64,000 nt of DNA from a phage. The stretch lies in sequence record OZ346219.1; one strand, given 5' to 3'. The position numbers and the translations under genes are program-made. This document shows positions 17,330 through 46,530 of this stretch, piece by piece; the first letter of the stretch is position 1; every line of letters starts with the position of its first letter. A model generated the notes under the pieces. It did no database searches. It had not been told where the DNA came from and saw nothing but the letters and a program-made list of their open reading frames with translations.

Positions 17330-17360
17330 TGTTGATTCTCCTTCTTGATTAGATGGGAGT

Positions 17361-17389
17361 ATTTTACTACTCCCATTTCTTATTGTCAA
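17361..17389 (-). promoter_or_regulatory. Sigma70-like early promoter with palindrome spanning the -10 element
   Basis: rc: TTGACA-17-TAAAAT; GGGAGTAGTAAAATACTCCC. Confidence 0.5.
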
Positions 17390-18180: not shown

Positions 18181-18993
18181 TCAATCTACGTTAGTTACAT
18201 AAACTTCTTGTGTATCAGAAGACTTGCCACCTGAACGATCTAGGCAATAGGTCTTATTCAACAGGACGCAGTTTAAATCATTCCGCTTGATAAAGTCAAG
18301 AAGATGATCATTTACCTTTCCCTTATGATGTGTGACATTACTTATACCAAACTGAAAACCACGCGCCATAATAGATTCTACCCACTGATAGAATTTAATC
18401 TCTTCCTCGTCACTCCAGAACTTATTATATTCCGCAGAAGTGATAAGGTACGGCGGGTCCAAATAAACGAAATCACCTGGCAAGATCTCGATCTCGTCAT
18501 AACGACCAGACGTAAAACTGATTCGACCGTCTTTGTTTTCTTCCTTAAAATTCAGGACACGCTCTACCGCGTTTTCGTTAAAAGTCCGGCGACCAAAATT
18601 AGCATTAAATTCGCCCTTCCTGTTATGACGGTTAATGTTGCTAAAACTGTGCTGAATCAGAACAAACAGAGATAGCGGATCTGGATTCTCATTATACTTC
18701 TTACGGAATGCCATGTAAGCATCTTTATCATCACGAGACAAACCATTTTCGGCAATAATCCTCTTGATCATAAAAACCGGATCAGGACACTCATCAATGA
18801 CCTTGTAAGCGTCAATTAAGCGGTGATCATAGTCATTAGCCAGCACATCCCCTTCGACGTACAGAGACACGCTCAAGCCACCACAAAAGGCATCGACAAA
18901 GCGGTTATAGTGCTTAGGGAAATACTTACTAACACCAGGCAATAACTTTTCCTTATTGCCCGTATAGGGAATTAAACCTAATGCTTTCTTCAT
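18181..18993 (-). CDS. dam: DNA adenine methyltransferase Dam
   Basis: FCGGLSV (AdoMet motif I) and DPPY catalytic motif; overall similarity to T4 Dam. Confidence 0.85.
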   Translation of the reverse strand: MKKALGLIPYTGNKEKLLPGVSKYFPKHYNRFVDAFCGGLSVSLYVEGDVLANDYDHRLIDAYKVIDECPDPVFMIKRIIAENGLSRDDKDAYMAFRKKYNENPDPLSLFVLIQHSFSNINRHNRKGEFNANFGRRTFNENAVERVLNFKEENKDGRISFTSGRYDEIEILPGDFVYLDPPYLITSAEYNKFWSDEEEIKFYQWVESIMARGFQFGISNVTHHKGKVNDHLLDFIKRNDLNCVLLNKTYCLDRSGGKSSDTQEVYVTNVD

Positions 18994-21564: not shown

Positions 21565-21868
21565 GTTTTCCTCTCAGTACAATTCGTGAAATCTTCCCTT
21601 CATGATTTCGTTGGTTCTTGTCTTCACAGTTTACCCATTCAACAAGGTCTTTACCTAACTCGAAAGCCCATTCTCGGTCCTGCTTTACGTTTTGTAGGTA
21701 TGGACTTTCTGACACTCTACGAAGTGATGTTGTCGTAACAAGAATGATCTCAGGAATGGTCGGATGTTCTTTTCCATATACAATAGGACGCGAGTCACTA
21801 TCAATACCTTGTAAGAAGGTGTATCCTGAATCACTTAGAATCATATACTTTTTCATTTCACACATCAC
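21527..21868 (-). CDS. Hypothetical protein
   Basis: 113-aa ORF. Confidence 0.4.
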   Translation of the reverse strand: MMCEMKKYMILSDSGYTFLQGIDSDSRPIVYGKEHPTIPEIILVTTTSLRRVSESPYLQNVKQDREWAFELGKDLVEWVNCEDKNQRNHEGKISRIVLRGKLDEIKNRILQSM

Positions 21869-22122
21869 AGTTTCCTCAACCAGTTATTAAAGCTAGCAAA
21901 CCATGATGCTTTTCGTGCTTCTTTTACTTTATGTGCACGTAAACCACTGAAACACCATTCATAATCATCACTGAAACATGATTCAACAGGAACACCCGCA
22001 TTTCGTAGTTCTCTGGTCTTTATCATGAATCCTTGACATAATGGGCGACCTTCAACAATGATAGGAAGTTTAACTTTTTCCATGAAAGTATACCCAGCAC
22101 GGTCAATAATTTCAATCTTCAT
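21865..22122 (-). CDS. MKIEIID-family small protein (paralogue A)
   Basis: MKIEIIDRAGYTFMEKVKLPIIVEGR... paralogous to next ORF. Confidence 0.5.
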   Translation of the reverse strand: MKIEIIDRAGYTFMEKVKLPIIVEGRPLCQGFMIKTRELRNAGVPVESCFSDDYEWCFSGLRAHKVKEARKASWFASFNNWLRKL

Positions 22123-22140
22123 AATATAATCCTCAATTAG

Positions 22141-22338
22141 TTATACCGCCCAGGCTTCATTTGCACGAAAACACCATTCATATTCAGGAAAATAACCTTT
22201 AATTGGTACGCCAGCTTTTTGTAGTTCCTGCGTTTCTACAAGATAATCAAGCCCATAACGACGACCTTCCACGATGATAGGAAGTTTAACGCCATTCATG
22301 AAAGAAAATCCACCGTCATCAATAATTTCAATTTTCAT
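22141..22338 (-). CDS. MKIEIID-family small protein (paralogue B)
   Basis: MKIEIIDDGGFSFMNGVKLPIIVEGR... Confidence 0.5.
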   Translation of the reverse strand: MKIEIIDDGGFSFMNGVKLPIIVEGRRYGLDYLVETQELQKAGVPIKGYFPEYEWCFRANEAWAV

Positions 22339-23231: not shown

Positions 23232-23522
23232 TCAAATTGTAGTTTTGCGAAGATGGTCATTACATGCTTTTAATGCATCGGTCGCGGTGTCATAGCGAGT
23301 ATTATCATAGCACCAATAACCATCTGTCAACTGATAAATTAATCCATCCTTTTTAGCTTCGATGAAAGATAACTCTTTGAAAGTTTCTACTTTCTTTGCT
23401 GATAATCCACGGTCACGGCGCTTATAGAGTTTAGCCAAAATGCGTTCAGCTTGTTCCTCTTTATCACCAGACAGATCCCAGATGATGTTTCGGATATGCT
23501 TGATTAATTGTTCAGTGGTCAT
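23232..23522 (-). CDS. Hypothetical protein
   Basis: 96-aa ORF after early promoter 23551-23578. Confidence 0.45.
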   Translation of the reverse strand: MTTEQLIKHIRNIIWDLSGDKEEQAERILAKLYKRRDRGLSAKKVETFKELSFIEAKKDGLIYQLTDGYWCYDNTRYDTATDALKACNDHLRKTTI

Positions 23523-23550: not shown

Positions 23551-23578
23551 CATTATAGCATTGTGATTATCTTTGTCA
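23551..23578 (-). promoter_or_regulatory. Sigma70-like early promoter
   Basis: rc: TTGACA-16-TATAAT. Confidence 0.5.
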
Positions 23579-23583
23579 ACACC

Positions 23584-23615
23584 CAAAAACAAAAAAGGCT
23601 ACCCCGAAGGATAGC
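23584..23615 (-). terminator. Rho-independent terminator downstream of gp38-like gene
   Basis: GGCUAUCCUUCGGGGUAGCC hairpin + U-run on minus strand. Confidence 0.6.
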
Positions 23616-23623
23616 CCATAAAA

Positions 23624-24400
23624 TTACACGCGAGCACCGTAGATCGTGCCTACTTTATCCCAGCGAGGGGCATTACCAGTAACAGCTTTACCCGCAGCAC
23701 CACCGTTATATTCTGTACCGTTCCCCTGAGTATTACATCTTCCTCCAGCAGCACCAACGTTACCGCCCGCACCACCTGTATATGCACTAAGAGACCCCTT
23801 ACCAACAGATCCTTTACCCGGAGCGGAAATGGAGCCAGCGGTTGCACCAGAACCCATATTAGAGGAAGACCCGGCAGCACCGAATGGGCGACCACCGCCG
23901 CCACCAAATACTAGTCGACCCCTGTTACCGCCGCCACCGCCACCACCGCCGCCAGCGATAGCACCGTTATTTGTAATTCGTAGACGTGTACCGATAGCGT
24001 TATTGATTGCGTTTCCACCAGCAGCGCCAGCAGCGTTACTACCACCATTACCCCCACGTCCGTAGACAGTCACACCGGAGTTAATGATCAATGTTACATA
24101 TTCGTTTGTTAACGAGCTAGGGAAGTCAAGACAAGGAACGCCAGTAGATTGGGAAACAATATTACCTGTGATAGTAATTACTACCGGAGTAGATCCTTGT
24201 GCTTTCATCCAGTTAATAAGAGTGTCTTTATTGTAAGAGTTACTAGCACCAATGCTATAATGAATCTCTTTAGAACGTCCGACCATTGCTGACATATACG
24301 CCGGACGACCTAAGCGAACAGCTTGCATTGCGGCGCTCATCCACCGTTGACCAGTCTCGGACACAGCAGATGATCCTACCCATCCAGAAGATATTGCCAT
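23624..24400 (-). CDS. gp38-like receptor-binding adhesin homologue (T2-type, glycine-rich)
   Basis: N-terminus MAISSGWVGSSAVSETGQRWMS..., poly-glycine motifs (GGGGGGGGG, FGGGGGRPFGA) and C-terminal ...GTIYGARV match my recollection of T2/T6-type gp38 over the whole length. Confidence 0.7.
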   Translation of the reverse strand: MAISSGWVGSSAVSETGQRWMSAAMQAVRLGRPAYMSAMVGRSKEIHYSIGASNSYNKDTLINWMKAQGSTPVVITITGNIVSQSTGVPCLDFPSSLTNEYVTLIINSGVTVYGRGGNGGSNAAGAAGGNAINNAIGTRLRITNNGAIAGGGGGGGGGNRGRLVFGGGGGRPFGAAGSSSNMGSGATAGSISAPGKGSVGKGSLSAYTGGAGGNVGAAGGRCNTQGNGTEYNGGAAGKAVTGNAPRWDKVGTIYGARV

Positions 24401-24410
24401 AAAATTTCCT

Positions 24411-24435
24411 CACAAGAAAAGCCCCAATTAAGGGG
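24411..24435 (-). terminator. Rho-independent terminator immediately upstream of gp38-like gene
   Basis: GCCCCUUAAUUGGGGC hairpin + UUUUCUUG. Confidence 0.5.
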
Positions 24436-24454
24436 CATTGATTGATAATATTAC

Positions 24455-24676
24455 TTAGATGACCTCTGCTTCACCATCCAGGAAGAAAGACCATGTTTTG
24501 TTAGGATAGCGAAGCGCCCATGATTCAGCAGTTTTAACACCCGCTTCGAACAATTGACGGCTGGTTACTTTAGCCATACCATCTTCGATGGCAACGTTTT
24601 CAATAATCATCGGGTACTTAGCGCCACGCATGAAACCGAAACCAGCGGAAGATTTGATAATTTTAACAGTTGCCAT
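24455..24676 (-). CDS. Small protein distantly related to MKIEIID family
   Basis: MATVKIIKSSAGFGFMRGAKYPMIIEN... Confidence 0.45.
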   Translation of the reverse strand: MATVKIIKSSAGFGFMRGAKYPMIIENVAIEDGMAKVTSRQLFEAGVKTAESWALRYPNKTWSFFLDGEAEVI

Positions 24677-24717: not shown

Positions 24718-24746
24718 ATTATGCAATAACACCGGATCGCTGTCAA
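24718..24746 (-). promoter_or_regulatory. Sigma70-like early promoter
   Basis: rc: TTGACA-17-CATAAT followed by conserved leader CGAAACGAGATACACTTTCTAGGAGAATCAAAA. Confidence 0.5.
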
Positions 24747-25048: not shown

Positions 25049-25395
25049 GCCAGACCTCGCAAAATACTAATAGCATAATCATGCTGGTTATTCATAATAT
25101 CAATTGCATTGTGATAACGAGCTAAACCATCAAGGATAAATTCTTGTTTATCCTGTTTCAGTTTGGTATCACGCGCAGCCATAAGAGCATCAAGAACAGG
25201 TCCAAAGTGATTATCTAATTCATCTTCGGTTGCAATATTTCCTATTGCCTCGTCGATCCGTGATTCTAATGCTTGCTTTTCGTTGATCACTTGCTGGGTA
25301 TATTCCAACACATCAAGAATATCGCGGGTAACGTCGCCATGATAAGGTATTCCCGCATGAAGGTGATCAATTAGTCGTTGAATGTCAATGTTCAT
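25045..25395 (-). CDS. Hypothetical protein
   Basis: 116-aa ORF. Confidence 0.4.
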   Translation of the reverse strand: MNIDIQRLIDHLHAGIPYHGDVTRDILDVLEYTQQVINEKQALESRIDEAIGNIATEDELDNHFGPVLDALMAARDTKLKQDKQEFILDGLARYHNAIDIMNNQHDYAISILRGLA

Positions 25396-25730
25396 TTGTA
25401 ACCCTCCTCTGAAAGCACATCCCAGATCGTTGAGTCAAGGTGCATTAAATTCCACATAATAGAGTCATAACTAACGAAGCCAGAAGTAAAAATTACATCA
25501 CACTGGCGATAGGTCTTATGAAAATCGGTGGCTGTCTCTGCATCAATAGGCATATCGTCACCGGAAAGCACCAGACATTTAAGAATCATAACTCTGTTAG
25601 CCGTTGGCGCTTGCTTAGTCTTTTCAGCATATTTTTCGATGATCCGTTTTGCCTTTTCTTCTTTGATACGTCCAGACCAAATCCGGTTTCGGTATTGATT
25701 CATAATAATTTCAATCACATCATTTTGCAT
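25392..25730 (-). CDS. Hypothetical protein
   Basis: 112-aa ORF. Confidence 0.4.
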   Translation of the reverse strand: MQNDVIEIIMNQYRNRIWSGRIKEEKAKRIIEKYAEKTKQAPTANRVMILKCLVLSGDDMPIDAETATDFHKTYRQCDVIFTSGFVSYDSIMWNLMHLDSTIWDVLSEEGYK

Positions 25731-26256: not shown

Positions 26257-26656
26257 TTAAGACAGTCGAGTGAGTTTATAAATTGTTTTAAAACATAGAG
26301 CTTTGATATCGTCTAAAACGCTCTGTAACGAGCTATCAACATCATTATAAATCTCACTAGCCATTTGCGTTAACTCTTGCAAATAGGCAATTTCGCTAAT
26401 CTCCTTGCGGACGACCAACGTTGGCTGATAACGACCAGTGATCCCAATATTGGTTTCAGTGAAATCATCAACCAATTCTTGCATTTCAAGATAGAACTCT
26501 TCTAGAGCCTTATGTTTTGCATAAGATCCAGGACCAGTTACCCCAAAATGCGCAGAATGCATATAAGTAACACTCATCAGACATTCACCGATAAAGCGGT
26601 CAACTTTATTAGCTTTCCCCTCTTCGGACGTCTTTAGAAAATCAATGAATTTCATG
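26257..26656 (-). CDS. Hypothetical protein (133 aa)
   Basis: MKFIDFLKTSEEGK... with GGAGAA SD; downstream of late-promoter-like TATAAATA. Confidence 0.5.
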
Positions 26657-26944
26657 TTCTCTATTCTCCATATTATGCAACATAACAAACTGTTGTGCGG
26701 CATATTCCCCCATAATAAAACACTGCTTAGAATCCATACATTTACTACGAGCATACATCTTCATAATATGGGCATGAAATTTCTGGCTGGTTTCAATGGA
26801 AGGAGATATTTTGTTTACATATACTATCATTGCACCGTCGAAATAATCAGTAAAGTCACCAGTTGGATCATATTGATCAGCACTGACACTTCCGACCGCA
26901 GTCAAGCATATTGCCGCTGTTAGAGTTTTACGAATAAATGACAT
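26642..26944 (-). CDS. Secreted protein, possible RI-like antiholin (lysis inhibition)
   Basis: Signal-peptide-like N-terminus MSFIRKTLTAAICLTAVGSVSA; C-terminal C-x5-C-x3-GEYAAQ resembles T4 RI C-x5-C-x3-GAEMAQ; about 100 aa. Confidence 0.45.
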   Translation of the reverse strand: MSFIRKTLTAAICLTAVGSVSADQYDPTGDFTDYFDGAMIVYVNKISPSIETSQKFHAHIMKMYARSKCMDSKQCFIMGEYAAQQFVMLHNMENREHEIH

Positions 26945-26977: not shown

Positions 26978-26985
26978 TATTTATA
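26978..26985 (-). promoter_or_regulatory. T4-type late promoter TATAAATA (minus strand) inside the loop of a 9-bp inverted repeat
   Basis: Plus strand tatttata at 26978-26985; flanking CCCCAGATT / AATCTGGGG arms. Confidence 0.5.
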
Positions 26986-27012: not shown

Positions 27013-27609
27013 TTAGTTGGTAGTGCCATCAATAAAATGTTTACGGCACACAGAAACATATTTATCCTCTGCACCAACTTCGATTTGAGCACCATCGCGA
27101 ATAACATTACCCTCTTTATCTACACGAAGGACCATTGTTGCTTTCTTGCCACAATGACAAATACCCTTCATTTCGACCAGTTTATCAGCAAATGCCATCA
27201 ATGCCGCAGATCCTTCAAATAGATTGCCCTGAAAGTCAGTGCGAAGGCCATAGCACAGTACAGGGATATTTGCATCATCAACAAGCGCACACAAGCCTAA
27301 AACATGCTCTTTAGTCATAAATTGGGCTTCATCTACAAATACAGCATCAGGACGCCAGAGATCTGGTCTACGCTTACCTAACGATTCACGATAAACCAAG
27401 TCGAAAAGATCATCCGATTCCGTGAAGGTGATTGCGGGAGCACTTAGACCAATTCGTGAAACAACTTCACTTTCTGAATCTCGATTATCAATCGCTGGCT
27501 TAAGAATTAATACTCGCATATCACGTTCGGTATAGTTATAAGCACTTTGTAACAGAGAAGTTGATTTGCCAGCGTTCATAGATGCATAGTAGAAATATAG
27601 TTGCGCCAT
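27013..27609 (-). CDS. tk: Thymidine kinase
   Basis: MAQLYFYYASMNAGKSTSLLQ...CYGLRTDFQG...SVCRKH matches bacterial/T4 Tdk throughout. Confidence 0.9.
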   Translation of the reverse strand: MAQLYFYYASMNAGKSTSLLQSAYNYTERDMRVLILKPAIDNRDSESEVVSRIGLSAPAITFTESDDLFDLVYRESLGKRRPDLWRPDAVFVDEAQFMTKEHVLGLCALVDDANIPVLCYGLRTDFQGNLFEGSAALMAFADKLVEMKGICHCGKKATMVLRVDKEGNVIRDGAQIEVGAEDKYVSVCRKHFIDGTTN

Positions 27610-30569: not shown

Positions 30570-30598
30570 TTTTAATACTCCTTTGTTTCGATGGGGGT

Positions 30599-30627
30599 AT
30601 ATTACTACCCCCGTTTTGTTGTGTCAA
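30599..30627 (-). promoter_or_regulatory. Sigma70-like early promoter with palindrome over -10
   Basis: rc: TTGACA-17-TAATAT; GGGGGTAGTAATATACCCCC. Confidence 0.5.
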
Positions 30628-44155: not shown

Positions 44156-45955
44156 ATGCTAATGTTTAATAACTCCGTTAAATGGTTTACCGGAATTGTA
44201 GAAAACAGGGAAGACCCGTTAATGCTGGGGCGTGTTCAGGTTAGGATTCATGGTATACATCCCTCGCTATCCGCGCACGGTGACATTCAAGGTCTTCCAA
44301 CAGAAGATCTATTATGGATTACGCCAATACAAGATATTACAAGCGCGGCGATCTCCGGTATAGGTCAAAGCCCTACTGGTATTGTTGAAGGTTCAATGGT
44401 ATTTGGTTTGGCTTTAGATGAACGTTATTTAAACTGCGTTATTCTGGGTACTATTGCCGGACAATATACAGAGAAACCACTCACTACAGAAGGTTTTTGC
44501 GACCCTTCTGGTGCATATCCTCGTTATATTGGTAATGATGTTAATATTCTTGCTCGTGGCGGTATTAACCCAGAAACCGGACAAACAACAAAACCTGATA
44601 GTGTCTATATTCGAGATGAAAACACTGGAGTTGCAGTAAATCCAGACGACGAGCCATTAGACCAAATTCCGGTTGATGATAATCCTGATTTTACAATAGA
44701 AAAAATGCTGCGGGGCGATGAGGGATATCGCGAGAAATGGTATCTTGATTCAGAAGGATATCCGACAATAGGCATCGGGCATTTGATCATTTATAAGAAA
44801 ACCAGTGATCTTGGTATTATCAATAATGAACTTTCTAAGCTGGTAGGGCGTGAAGTTACAAACGGAAGACTTACCGCCGAAGAAGTTAGTAAAGTATTTG
44901 CTGACGATATAGAAAAGACTCGTCGTGATATGCGCAAACATCCACGAATTGCACCTGTCTATAATAAATGTAATGCCTCACGTCGTATGGCATTAGAAAA
45001 TATGGCGTTTCAAATGGGTGTTGGAGGATTGGGTAAATTTAAGAATAGTCTTGCTGCGATGTTAGCGGAAGAATGGAAACAAGCCTATGATGGATTACGT
45101 CAATCGGTATGGGCTAACCAAACTCCAGGACGCTCCAGCCGTGTTTCTAAAATTATTTTAACTGGTAACTTAGAATCATATGGCGTAATTGCTCCAAAGA
45201 AAGAGGAATCAATTTCGGATGATCCGCGAGCACGTTTGAGAAATGCCCGTATTGCTGCCTATAAGACGCAGAGAGCAGAAGAAGACCCAGAAGCACCGTT
45301 TACCCCACAAGACACACGAATCATGTTTAAAGAGCCTAAGAGTTCGTATTCTGCGAGGTATCCTTATAACCATGTGTACGAGTCAGAGAGCGGTCATATT
45401 ATCGAGATTGATGATACTCCTTCTCATGAGCGATATCATCGCAAACATCCTTCTGGTACATTTGAAGAAACCAGACCGGACGGAACGAGGGTAGAAAAGA
45501 TTGAAGGCGATGATTATCTGATCGTTAAACAAGGCCGGAAAGTAAACGTTAAGGGTAATTTGCAAGTTGTTGTTGAAGGTGACGCGCAAGTTTATTATAT
45601 GGGTAATGTGATGCAAACCGTTGATGGTAACGTCACGGAATTTATTCGTGGTAATGTTAATCAGACCGTTGAGGGTACAGCTAATATGCATGTTGTAGGT
45701 GATGTTACCGCTCAACTTGACGCTAATTTAACGGCTAATGTCAAGGGTAATGCTGAATTAATGATCGAGGGCAACACTACCGAAACAATTAAAGGTAACT
45801 ATGATTTAACCGTTGAGGGTAATTTTAATATGACCGTCAATGGCACTAAATCAGATCAGGTTAATGGTGACTGGTCCCGTAATTGTGGTGCAAGCGTTAA
45901 AGATATTGCATCTGGTACAGTTAAAATTGATGGTAGCCGTATTGATCTTGGGTGA
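44156..45955 (+). CDS. 5: Baseplate hub / tail lysozyme gp5
   Basis: N-terminal OB-fold region VGIVENREDPLMLGRVQVRIHGIH, lysozyme domain LRGDEGYREKWYLDSEGYPTIGIGHL, C-terminal VxGxxxxxV beta-helix repeats. Confidence 0.9.
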   Translation: MLMFNNSVKWFTGIVENREDPLMLGRVQVRIHGIHPSLSAHGDIQGLPTEDLLWITPIQDITSAAISGIGQSPTGIVEGSMVFGLALDERYLNCVILGTIAGQYTEKPLTTEGFCDPSGAYPRYIGNDVNILARGGINPETGQTTKPDSVYIRDENTGVAVNPDDEPLDQIPVDDNPDFTIEKMLRGDEGYREKWYLDSEGYPTIGIGHLIIYKKTSDLGIINNELSKLVGREVTNGRLTAEEVSKVFADDIEKTRRDMRKHPRIAPVYNKCNASRRMALENMAFQMGVGGLGKFKNSLAAMLAEEWKQAYDGLRQSVWANQTPGRSSRVSKIILTGNLESYGVIAPKKEESISDDPRARLRNARIAAYKTQRAEEDPEAPFTPQDTRIMFKEPKSSYSARYPYNHVYESESGHIIEIDDTPSHERYHRKHPSGTFEETRPDGTRVEKIEGDDYLIVKQGRKVNVKGNLQVVVEGDAQVYYMGNVMQTVDGNVTEFIRGNVNQTVEGTANMHVVGDVTAQLDANLTANVKGNAELMIEGNTTETIKGNYDLTVEGNFNMTVNGTKSDQVNGDWSRNCGASVKDIASGTVKIDGSRIDLG

Positions 45956-45963
45956 GGTAACTA

Positions 45964-46530
45964 ATGGTTGAAATTCTTCCGATGAGTTCAAAATTGGAGG
46001 ATATCAGCGAGCGAGAAATCTTTGAGGTGGTGTTCTCTTATAAAGCAACGCCACCGGATGCAAATACCACATACACGATTAAAGAGTTTAAGATCAGCGA
46101 GTATCGCCCTAATAAGGGCGTTACCGTTGAAGAAACTAAAATATCTGGTGAGTATCGGGATAGTTTTTCGCTTGGCGCGGATTCTCTTAAATATATAACG
46201 AAAGATCGAATTAAAAAATCTGCCGGAAGTTTTGATGATTTACCAGATCCAACTACCGCAGATCTATATTATTTTAACGCTCCTACACGTCTACAGGAGG
46301 TTTATACTTATAAAGTCACCCTAACCTATATCCAATCTGTTTCAGAGTCTTCTGGTGGTTCTGGTGAAGGAAATAGTGGTGGTTCCAATAGCCGAGAGGG
46401 TGCTGGTGAAACTAATCCGCCTCCGGTAGTAACCGAACACACAATAGAGAAAGTTTATACTCAAACCGTTTTTGGAAATTGGGATGAGTGGGCGCAGCAA
46501 CTAAGAGATTATGTACATAGGGGTGTTTAA
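45964..46530 (+). CDS. Hypothetical protein (gene 5.1-5.3 position)
   Basis: 188-aa ORF between gp5 and PAAR protein. Confidence 0.45.

Follow-up and report, generated by a model that had tools for sequence, protein, structure and literature searches.

The gp38 protein of phage S16 (chain D of PDB entry 6F45) is the structural archetype of the adhesin considered here, with an N-terminal attachment segment and glycine-rich motifs. S16 is reported to bind OmpC, and its gene 38 comes directly after gene 37. In phages T2, T6 and Bas45, gene 38 is a late-strand gene flanked by gene 37 and the holin gene t. The partner gp37 of this adhesin type, as in T2 and S16, ends in a self-cleaving S74 chaperone domain instead of a T4-type needle tip. 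Displacement of gene 38 has been published for RB49 (Trojet 2011, citing Desplats 2002), a preprint reported it for five Krischviruses, with about 55 kb separating gp38 and gp37 (10.64898/2026.04.02.716166), and gp38 was found away from the holin gene in the Krischvirus genomes FL37 and FL38, but not in FL04, FL15 and FL20 (Lutz 2025, PMC12032242). The displaced gene 38, its function and the variation of its position within the genus are all already in print. The hyperplastic regions of RB49 and phi1 are populated by PeSL cassettes (promoter-early stem-loops), for which the published criteria are flanks made of a composite sigma-70 promoter and a stem-loop, and excision of a mini-circle by PeSL recombination; in the commonest PeSL design, a hairpin lies between the −35 and −10 elements (Arbiol 2010, PMC2839356).

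We analysed a 64,000-nt stretch of phage DNA (sequence record OZ346219.1, one strand; hereafter the window). We assign it to a Krischvirus (RB49-like) genome by sequence comparison: its first 25 kb are collinear with positions 19.9–46.7 kb of RB49, and the 3 kb around gene 38 are 97–99% identical to Krischvirus genomes (98.6–98.7% for ELT3 and KFS-EC, 97.2% for RB49). Gene 38 lies on the minus strand at 23624..24400 (258 codons plus a stop codon) and is preceded by the Shine-Dalgarno sequence GAGGA (24407..24411, same strand), 6 nt 5′ of the ATG. A preliminary description, made from the letters alone, had taken this minus-strand ORF for a T2/T6-type gp38 adhesin, and strong gp38 matches in Pfam, PHROG and PDB bear out that identification. 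The protein begins with MAISSGWVGSSAVSETGQRWMS, ends with IYGARV and contains several glycine runs of up to nine residues, glycine making up 33% of residues 110–258. It matches Pfam GP38 (PF05268) over profile positions 1–218 of 218 (E 5.3e-72), Pfam Gp38_N (PF21721) over positions 1–40 of 40 (E 3.9e-18) and the PHROG 2056 family 'tail fiber protein; host specificity' (E 2e-98). Its residues 1–256 align with residues 1–247 of 6F45_D, the S16 receptor recognition protein (E 1e-49), residues 1–40 of the two proteins being aligned with each other. Judged by their scores, these family matches far exceed chance.

Both parts typical of a T2/T6/S16-type adhesin are present, an N-terminal docking domain and a glycine-rich C-terminal receptor-binding domain. 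The predicted gp37-tip docking domain corresponds to codons 1–40 (24281..24400, minus strand), whereas the receptor-binding domain contains a mosaic hypervariable block of glycine-rich motifs and variable loops (23690..24100, minus strand). An alignment of six gp38 proteins revealed invariant glycine motifs separated by variable segments; the variable loops of S16 gp38 are unlike those of the window. No signal peptide or other added domain was detected in gp38, whose length and architecture are the standard ones by comparison with Pfam and PDB. By its match to the structural archetype and its full two-part architecture, the protein is a complete T2-type adhesin. The gene is very probably gene 38, encoding the sole long-tail-fibre tip adhesin of an RB49-like (Krischvirus) T4-type phage, with its normal job at an unusual address.

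RB49, Phi1, JSE, KFS-EC, ELT3 and GEC-3S all have this gene at the corresponding locus, flanked by the same ORFs, hairpins and promoter, and several database records of it are variously labelled 'hypothetical protein', 'tail assembly' or 'assembly catalyst'. At the amino acid level, the window gp38 is 99.6% identical to its KFS-EC and ELT3 homologues and 98.5% identical to RB49 gp38, from which it differs by four substitutions and nothing else (window residue, position, RB49 residue: S4K, S5A, A176G and K201E). Codons 1–40 are identical in RB49, GEC-3S and Brandy49 except for codons 4–5. The 45 N-terminal residues of gp38 in Bas45, T2 and T6 differ more from those of the window, each version being presumably matched to its own gp37 tip.

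Published genetics on RB49 establish the function of this gene. RB49 gp38 is treated as the fibre adhesin by Golomidova et al. (2022, PMC9569957), whose RB49 host-range mutants were changed only in gp38 (E230K, or E230K + Y231S); both E230 and Y231 are retained in the window gp38, inside the mosaic block. RB-TnSeq assigns RB49 to OmpA and ties this dependence to gp38 (preprint 10.64898/2026.04.02.716166), and phage Bas45 (Tequatrovirus PaulHMueller) is OmpA-dependent (PMC8594841). Because the window protein departs from RB49 gp38 by so few substitutions and is about 90% identical to the OmpA-dependent Bas45 adhesin, OmpA is its most likely receptor, and some O antigens may be used too, as reported for RB49. 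Two of the four positions that distinguish it from RB49 gp38, K201 and A176 (E and G, respectively, in RB49), fall in the receptor-binding half, and a shift in specificity is possible. A Peptidase_S74 domain is present in gp37 of the relatives RB49, kvi and G2248, whose gp37 thus ends as it does in T2 and S16, consistent with a fibre that receives its gp38 cap once it has been trimmed. In such a fibre, the N-terminal ~40 residues of gp38 would cap the trimmed trimeric gp37 tip, and the variable loops would bind OmpA and possibly certain O antigens.

The position of the gene is that of an early gene, as the preliminary description had it, between tk on one side and dam and an nrdC-like ORF on the other. 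The gene tk (27013–27609, minus strand; PF00265, 1e-51) and the antiholin gene rI (26642–26944, minus strand) are located upstream of gene 38, and dam (18181–18993, minus strand) is located downstream, followed by an nrdC-like thioredoxin ORF with a CKYC motif just downstream of dam. All four are on the strand of gene 38; late baseplate genes (encoding gp5, gp7 and a fibritin-like protein) are on the opposite strand, beyond 44 kb of the window. The immediate neighbours are two ORFans, one of 73 codons adjoining the 5′ side of gene 38 (24455..24676, minus strand; homologue of RB49 ORF080c, with no Pfam match) and one of 96 codons that is the next ORF on the 3′ side (23232..23522, minus strand; homologue of RB49 ORF078c). 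The RB49 record (AY343333) names the same ORF gene 38 (CDS 45367–46143) and shows the same order as the window, dam/nrdC, gene 38, rI/tk.

Gene 38 is thus located between rI/tk and dam/nrdC and not directly downstream of gene 37, an adjacency that is typical of the family and does not define it. In RB49, gene 37 (151717–154656) is encoded on the opposite strand, with the small ORF dc5 and then the holin gene t behind it; the two fibre genes are separated by about 55 kb one way round the circular map and by about 106 kb the other way. The word 'relocated' used in the preliminary description is the accepted one for RB49. The same description had called for a search for gene 37 and for a second gp38, which we carried out in the window, and neither is present there: a tblastn search with RB49 gp37 gave a chance-level match only (E 1.5), and the whole window contains one gp38-like sequence. 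The window does not extend to gene 37 of this phage, and the fibre ends of the phage's nearest relatives are split in type, those of ELT3 and kaaroe being of the RB49 type and that of KFS-EC not. That gene 38 lies in a hyperplastic part of the early region, at a slot filled in some Krischviruses and empty in others, is well supported, and our sorting of FL37, FL38, FL04, FL15 and FL20 into occupied and empty sites agrees with Lutz 2025.

The gene is framed by two hairpins that the preliminary description had read as terminators. The one downstream is a strong intrinsic terminator just 3′ of the stop codon (23596..23617, minus strand), with a 9-bp stem, a UUCG loop and a U-run, and its stability stands out (−14.7 kcal/mol, z = −4.0 against shuffled sequences). 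The one upstream (24421..24436, minus strand; GCCCC-TTAATT-GGGGC then TTTTCTT) fits the terminator pattern, with five G-C pairs and a 6-nt loop, its stem ending 20 nt 5′ of the ATG, but its folding energy is ordinary (centroid −11.2 kcal/mol, z = −1.4, with 19 of 200 shuffled sequences folding as well). The interval first delimited, 23584–24435, does cover the ORF and both hairpins, except that the upstream stem really starts at 24436. The upstream hairpin is invariant in RB49, GEC-3S and Brandy49 and is probably a partial attenuator. A GC-rich hairpin is also found between the gene 37 stop codon and the gene 38 ribosome-binding site in T2, T6, Bas45 and kvi, where gene 38 follows gene 37, so that the upstream element looks like a regular part of the gene 38 unit and not like something specific to this location.

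On the 3′ side, the terminator is followed by a perfect sigma-70 promoter (TTGACA-16-TATAAT with an extended TG, 12 of 12 positions; 23552..23579, minus strand). Together, terminator and promoter form a full PeSL, which would drive the next ORF, the ORF078c homologue, and further PeSLs are found near gene 38 in the window. The idea that the gene is specially insulated by terminators is not supported, one flank being a standard PeSL and the other having counterparts in T2, T6, Bas45 and kvi. The nearest strong promoter match upstream of gene 38 is a sigma-70-type sequence before the ORF080c homologue (TTGACA-17-CATAAT, 11 of 12 positions; 24718..24746, minus strand), which is conserved in RB49, GEC-3S, Brandy49 and kvi and is annotated as a promoter at the equivalent position of the GEC-3S record. 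A weaker match (9 of 12 positions) lies inside the ORF080c homologue (24594–24567). A sequence scan detected no promoter between the upstream hairpin and the gene 38 ATG, where there is no room for one. The Shine-Dalgarno sequence of gene 38 lacks the RegB target GGAG, which is likewise missing in 20 of the 38 neighbouring RB49 genes, and the notion that gene 38 escapes RegB unlike its early neighbours is therefore uninformative.

From this arrangement of signals we infer a sigma-70 read-through route for gene 38. Transcription would start at the promoter 24746–24718, with the ORF080c homologue as the probable first cistron, and partial read-through of the upstream hairpin would carry the transcript into gene 38, which would have no promoter of its own; the transcript would end at 23596, in the strong terminator that follows the gene. 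Low, early or continuous expression would suffice, one gp38 being needed per fibre. The stem-loop of a PeSL can terminate transcription as well as rrnB T1 (Arbiol 2010, PMC2839356), and the upstream hairpin might therefore block most of the read-through. In T2, T6, Bas45 and kvi, too, gene 38 appears to lack its own promoter, and transcription presumably reaches it from gene 37. A literature search returned no transcript or proteome data for Krischvirus.

T4-type phages shut off their early promoters, which would favour a late source of gene 38 mRNA. The main alternative to the sigma-70 route leaves gene and function unchanged and makes transcription late, either from the rI late promoter 2.6 kb upstream, reading through the stem-loops, or from a non-consensus late promoter; gp38 would then be made late, as is customary for a virion protein. 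The nearest late-promoter motif on the strand of gene 38 is indeed TATAAATA before rI (26978..26985, minus strand), about 2.6 kb upstream, and it corresponds to the predicted RB49 late promoter Pl:48756 (Nolan 2006 supplement); all genes between it and gene 38 are on the same strand. However, at least two terminator-like hairpins intervene, one with an 11-bp stem (26026–26001) and the one directly before gene 38. Moreover, exact and relaxed searches for TATAAATA, ATAAATA, TATAAAT and TAAATA detected none of these motifs between gene 38 and the rI promoter, and the list of RB49 late promoters predicted by a hidden Markov model includes none near gene 38 (Nolan 2006). The earlier remark that no late promoter precedes the gene thus stands, and we regard late transcription as possible but rather unlikely.

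How the specificity of the adhesin is exchanged can be read from a locus alignment of the window, RB49, GEC-3S and Brandy49. Identity to GEC-3S and Brandy49 is reduced to 40–75% only at window positions ~24100–23690, inside the receptor-binding domain, whereas identity stays at about 97% or more over both hairpins, the promoter and the two ends of gene 38 (~300 nt at its start, ~70 nt at its finish). A sensitive DNA search of the locus gave matches outside Krischvirus that are confined to the gene 38 ORF, the best one being with the Tequatrovirus Bas45 (83% nucleotide identity), whose gp38 is 90% identical to that of the window (227 of 253 residues) and near-identical from residue 45 on. Because divergence is confined to an internal block and the flanks are conserved, these alignments indicate that specificity moves through intragenic recombination and not at the flanks. 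Recombination inside gene 38 has been described (Trojet 2011). The flanking terminators were rejected as exchange boundaries for the phages with a displaced gene, the breakpoints being inside the gene.

Fourteen genomes, including kvi and LF73P4, have no gene 38 at this site, where the ORF080c homologue is followed by a 61-nt spacer, TTGACA-CGGGGAGAAATCCCCG-TATAAT, and then by the ORF078c homologue. This spacer is a single PeSL with its hairpin between the −35 and −10 elements, and its inner sequence CGGGGAGAAATCCCCG is unlike either flank of the occupied site. Simple excision of gene 38 was rejected, the empty-site PeSL not being a chimera of the occupied-site flanks. Since neither flank is related to the spacer, the two states of the site are best described, as far as the sequences tell, as alternative alleles and not as a simple excision pair.

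These observations weigh on a reading in which the gene would be an extra adhesin cassette, spare or second, that the phage stores among its early genes to switch host range and that is swapped as a unit between the flanking terminators. The stem-loops on both flanks and the slot that is filled or empty among relatives do resemble the PeSL cassettes of Arbiol 2010, and gene 38 has clearly been exchanged between genera, the similarity to Bas45 being restricted to the ORF. Yet the divergent block is intragenic with gene ends and flanks well conserved, the empty-site element does not combine the two flanks, and besides the single copy in the window, exactly one gp38 match was found in each related occupied-site genome among the matches listed (best 60, tblastn). 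We consider a spare cassette very improbable.

The occupancy of the early site, sorted with a kvi junction query among Krischvirus genomes, was compared with the type of fibre end, sorted with a query across the junction between the RB49 gene 37 end and dc5. After removal of RefSeq duplicates, 52 distinct phages remained, which are database records sharing ancestry and not independent events. The site is occupied in 37 phages with an RB49-type gene 37 end and in a single phage with another end (KFS-EC); it is empty in 14 phages, all with another end, and in none with an RB49-type end. KFS-EC has kept the early-site gene although both the shaft and the tip of its gp37 belong to a different type. 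At least 10 of the 14 empty-site phages have a gene 38 of their own directly after gene 37 (order in kvi: gene 37, gene 38, dc5, t), and in those phages the module formed by the gene 37 end and gene 38 is 90–92% identical in nucleotides to that of many Tequatroviruses. The gp37 of kvi is only about 45% identical to RB49 gp37. Because the early-site gene is always kept with an RB49-type end and is absent with other ends, KFS-EC excepted, this distribution is the one expected of the adhesin of the RB49-type fibre and not of a gene with an independent early role.

It is extremely unlikely that the adhesin fold has been co-opted for a non-structural role early in infection, be it receptor masking, which the preliminary description also suggested, or superinfection exclusion: the early-strand site, the sigma-70-type promoters around it, the missing late-promoter motif and the retention of the gene by KFS-EC would suit such a role, but the gp37-docking domain is intact and conserved in a protein of standard gp38 build, the E230K and Y231S mutations and the RB-TnSeq assignment of RB49 concern this very gene, none of the 37 phages with an RB49-type end is without it, and the 14 phages that lack it all have another gene 37 end, in at least 10 of them with a gene 38 beside it.

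The sequence AAAAAGAATTAA after gene 38 of kvi was considered as a remnant of an RB49-type gene 37 3′ end, which would have made the displaced state ancestral, and this proposal was withdrawn. The junction with AAAAAGAATTAA is also present in KFS-EC and G2248, with a different sequence to its left; it therefore marks a module boundary before dc5 and is uninformative on the direction of evolution.

In outline, the pattern of occupied and empty sites appears to match the cassette model of Arbiol 2010. Like PeSL cassettes, gene 38 lies in a hyperplastic region and has a stem-loop terminator plus a sigma-70 promoter as its downstream flank, and in relatives one PeSL stands where the entire gene 38 unit would be. 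It differs from them in that its cargo is a putative essential virion gene and not an ORFan, that its upstream flank is the hairpin 24436–24421 only, without a promoter, and that the empty-site PeSL is not a recombinant of its flanks. A further-reaching proposal, which is tentative and to which we give rather less than even weight, is that the adhesin gene is a movable unit in a PeSL slot, that in most RB49-like phages an essential virion protein would be made from an early sigma-70 unit by attenuated read-through of a hairpin, uncoupled from the late tail-fibre operon, and that the slot would be vacated whenever a fibre end of another type takes over, in at least 10 of 14 cases with a gene 38 of its own.

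The feature is real and its earlier identification was correct, and it was already known. In annotation, the gene should be called gene 38, encoding the long-tail-fibre adhesin, a probable OmpA binder. For host-range engineering, it matters that specificity is exchanged through the ~400-nt intragenic block shared with Tequatroviruses and not through the flanking elements. Our analysis adds little on relocation, function and position variation; its modest point of interest is regulatory, a virion protein encoded amid early-type signals only. If the proposed movable unit and its sigma-70 expression are true, Krischvirus would offer a naturally occurring setting in which to ask whether fibre assembly depends on when and in what dose the tip adhesin is supplied, and how a late structural gene gets re-wired into an early regulon.

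The displaced gene 38 (g38), which encodes the tail-fibre tip adhesin, lies among early genes at window positions 23624..24400 (minus strand). It is surrounded by small ORFans, several of which resemble one another. The ORFs at 21865-22122 and 22141-22338 share 53% identity (E 3e-22), and each shows approximately 31% identity to the ORF located just upstream of g38 (24455-24676). The ORF just downstream of g38 (23232-23522) is 37% identical to the ORF at 25392-25730. A Pfam scan of four flanking ORFs (22141, 23232, 24455 and 24764) yielded no match for any of them. As judged from these similarities, the small ORFans flanking g38 on both sides are paralogous, which places g38 between two partly duplicated ORFan blocks.

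At the beginning of g38 itself, we detected a small mosaic patch (24386-24394) covering codons 3-5, which read I-S-S in the window and in GEC-3S versus I-K-A in RB49 and Brandy49. Several nucleotide changes are grouped within these 9 nt, and the adjoining 300 nt are nearly identical. The corresponding early site is empty in kvi, where it displays a design of the promoter-early stem-loops (PeSLs) known from RB49 and phi1 (Arbiol 2010, PMC2839356), with a stem-loop between the −35 and −10 boxes. This design recurs in two elements of the window, at 17351-17389 and 30590-30627. Each is a minus-strand promoter of the sigma-70 type, with a strong hairpin overlapping its spacer or −10 region.

The tblastn search of the phage collection with gp38 identified 806 places in 798 phage records, implying that eight records contain two gp38-like places; none of these is among the best 60 matches. 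Names given to g38 vary between database records ('hypothetical protein', 'tail assembly', 'receptor recognizing protein' or 'tail fiber adhesin'). Some g38 records carry the name 'distal long tail fiber assembly catalyst', which is that of the T4 gp38 chaperone and is wrong for the adhesin gp38 family.

The displaced g38 accompanies the RB49-type end of gene 37 (g37; followed in RB49 by the small ORF dc5 and the holin gene t), with KFS-EC (NC_055757; L011 7805-11307) as the single exception. The gp38 of KFS-EC is 99.6% identical to that of the window and its gene occupies the early site, but the shaft and tip of its g37 are kvi-like. This g37 is followed by an ORF of 107 aa (MGYWVSSEINTK...) that is not gp38-like, then by about 160 nt of non-coding sequence before dc5. 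A third Krischvirus tail-fibre arrangement is present in G2248 (MK327932; L009 7325-11605) and G37-3 (MK327941; L010), in which the early g38 site is empty. Here, gene 37 retains the S74 chaperone domain; downstream of it come three ORFs, each about 100 aa long and without Pfam match, and then dc5 and the holin gene.

The arrangements of RB49, kvi, KFS-EC and G2248 become homologous again at a common point 5′ of dc5, AAAAAGAATTAAGGAAAA (L003 16646-16660; about 12092 in kvi, L008; about 11037 in KFS-EC, L011), to the left of which each has a different sequence. The last four codons of RB49 g37, stop included, are supplied by AAAAAGAATTAAGGAAAA, which may represent either a hotspot for recombination or the boundary of a module. 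In kvi-type Krischviruses, the 3′ end of g37 and the 5′ half of g38 (kvi, MN850615; L008 10750-11775) exhibit 90-92% nucleotide identity to many Tequatroviruses, including RB14, HP3, KarlGJung and fPS-65. This level of sequence identity suggests that the two genera have recently exchanged the fibre-tip module.
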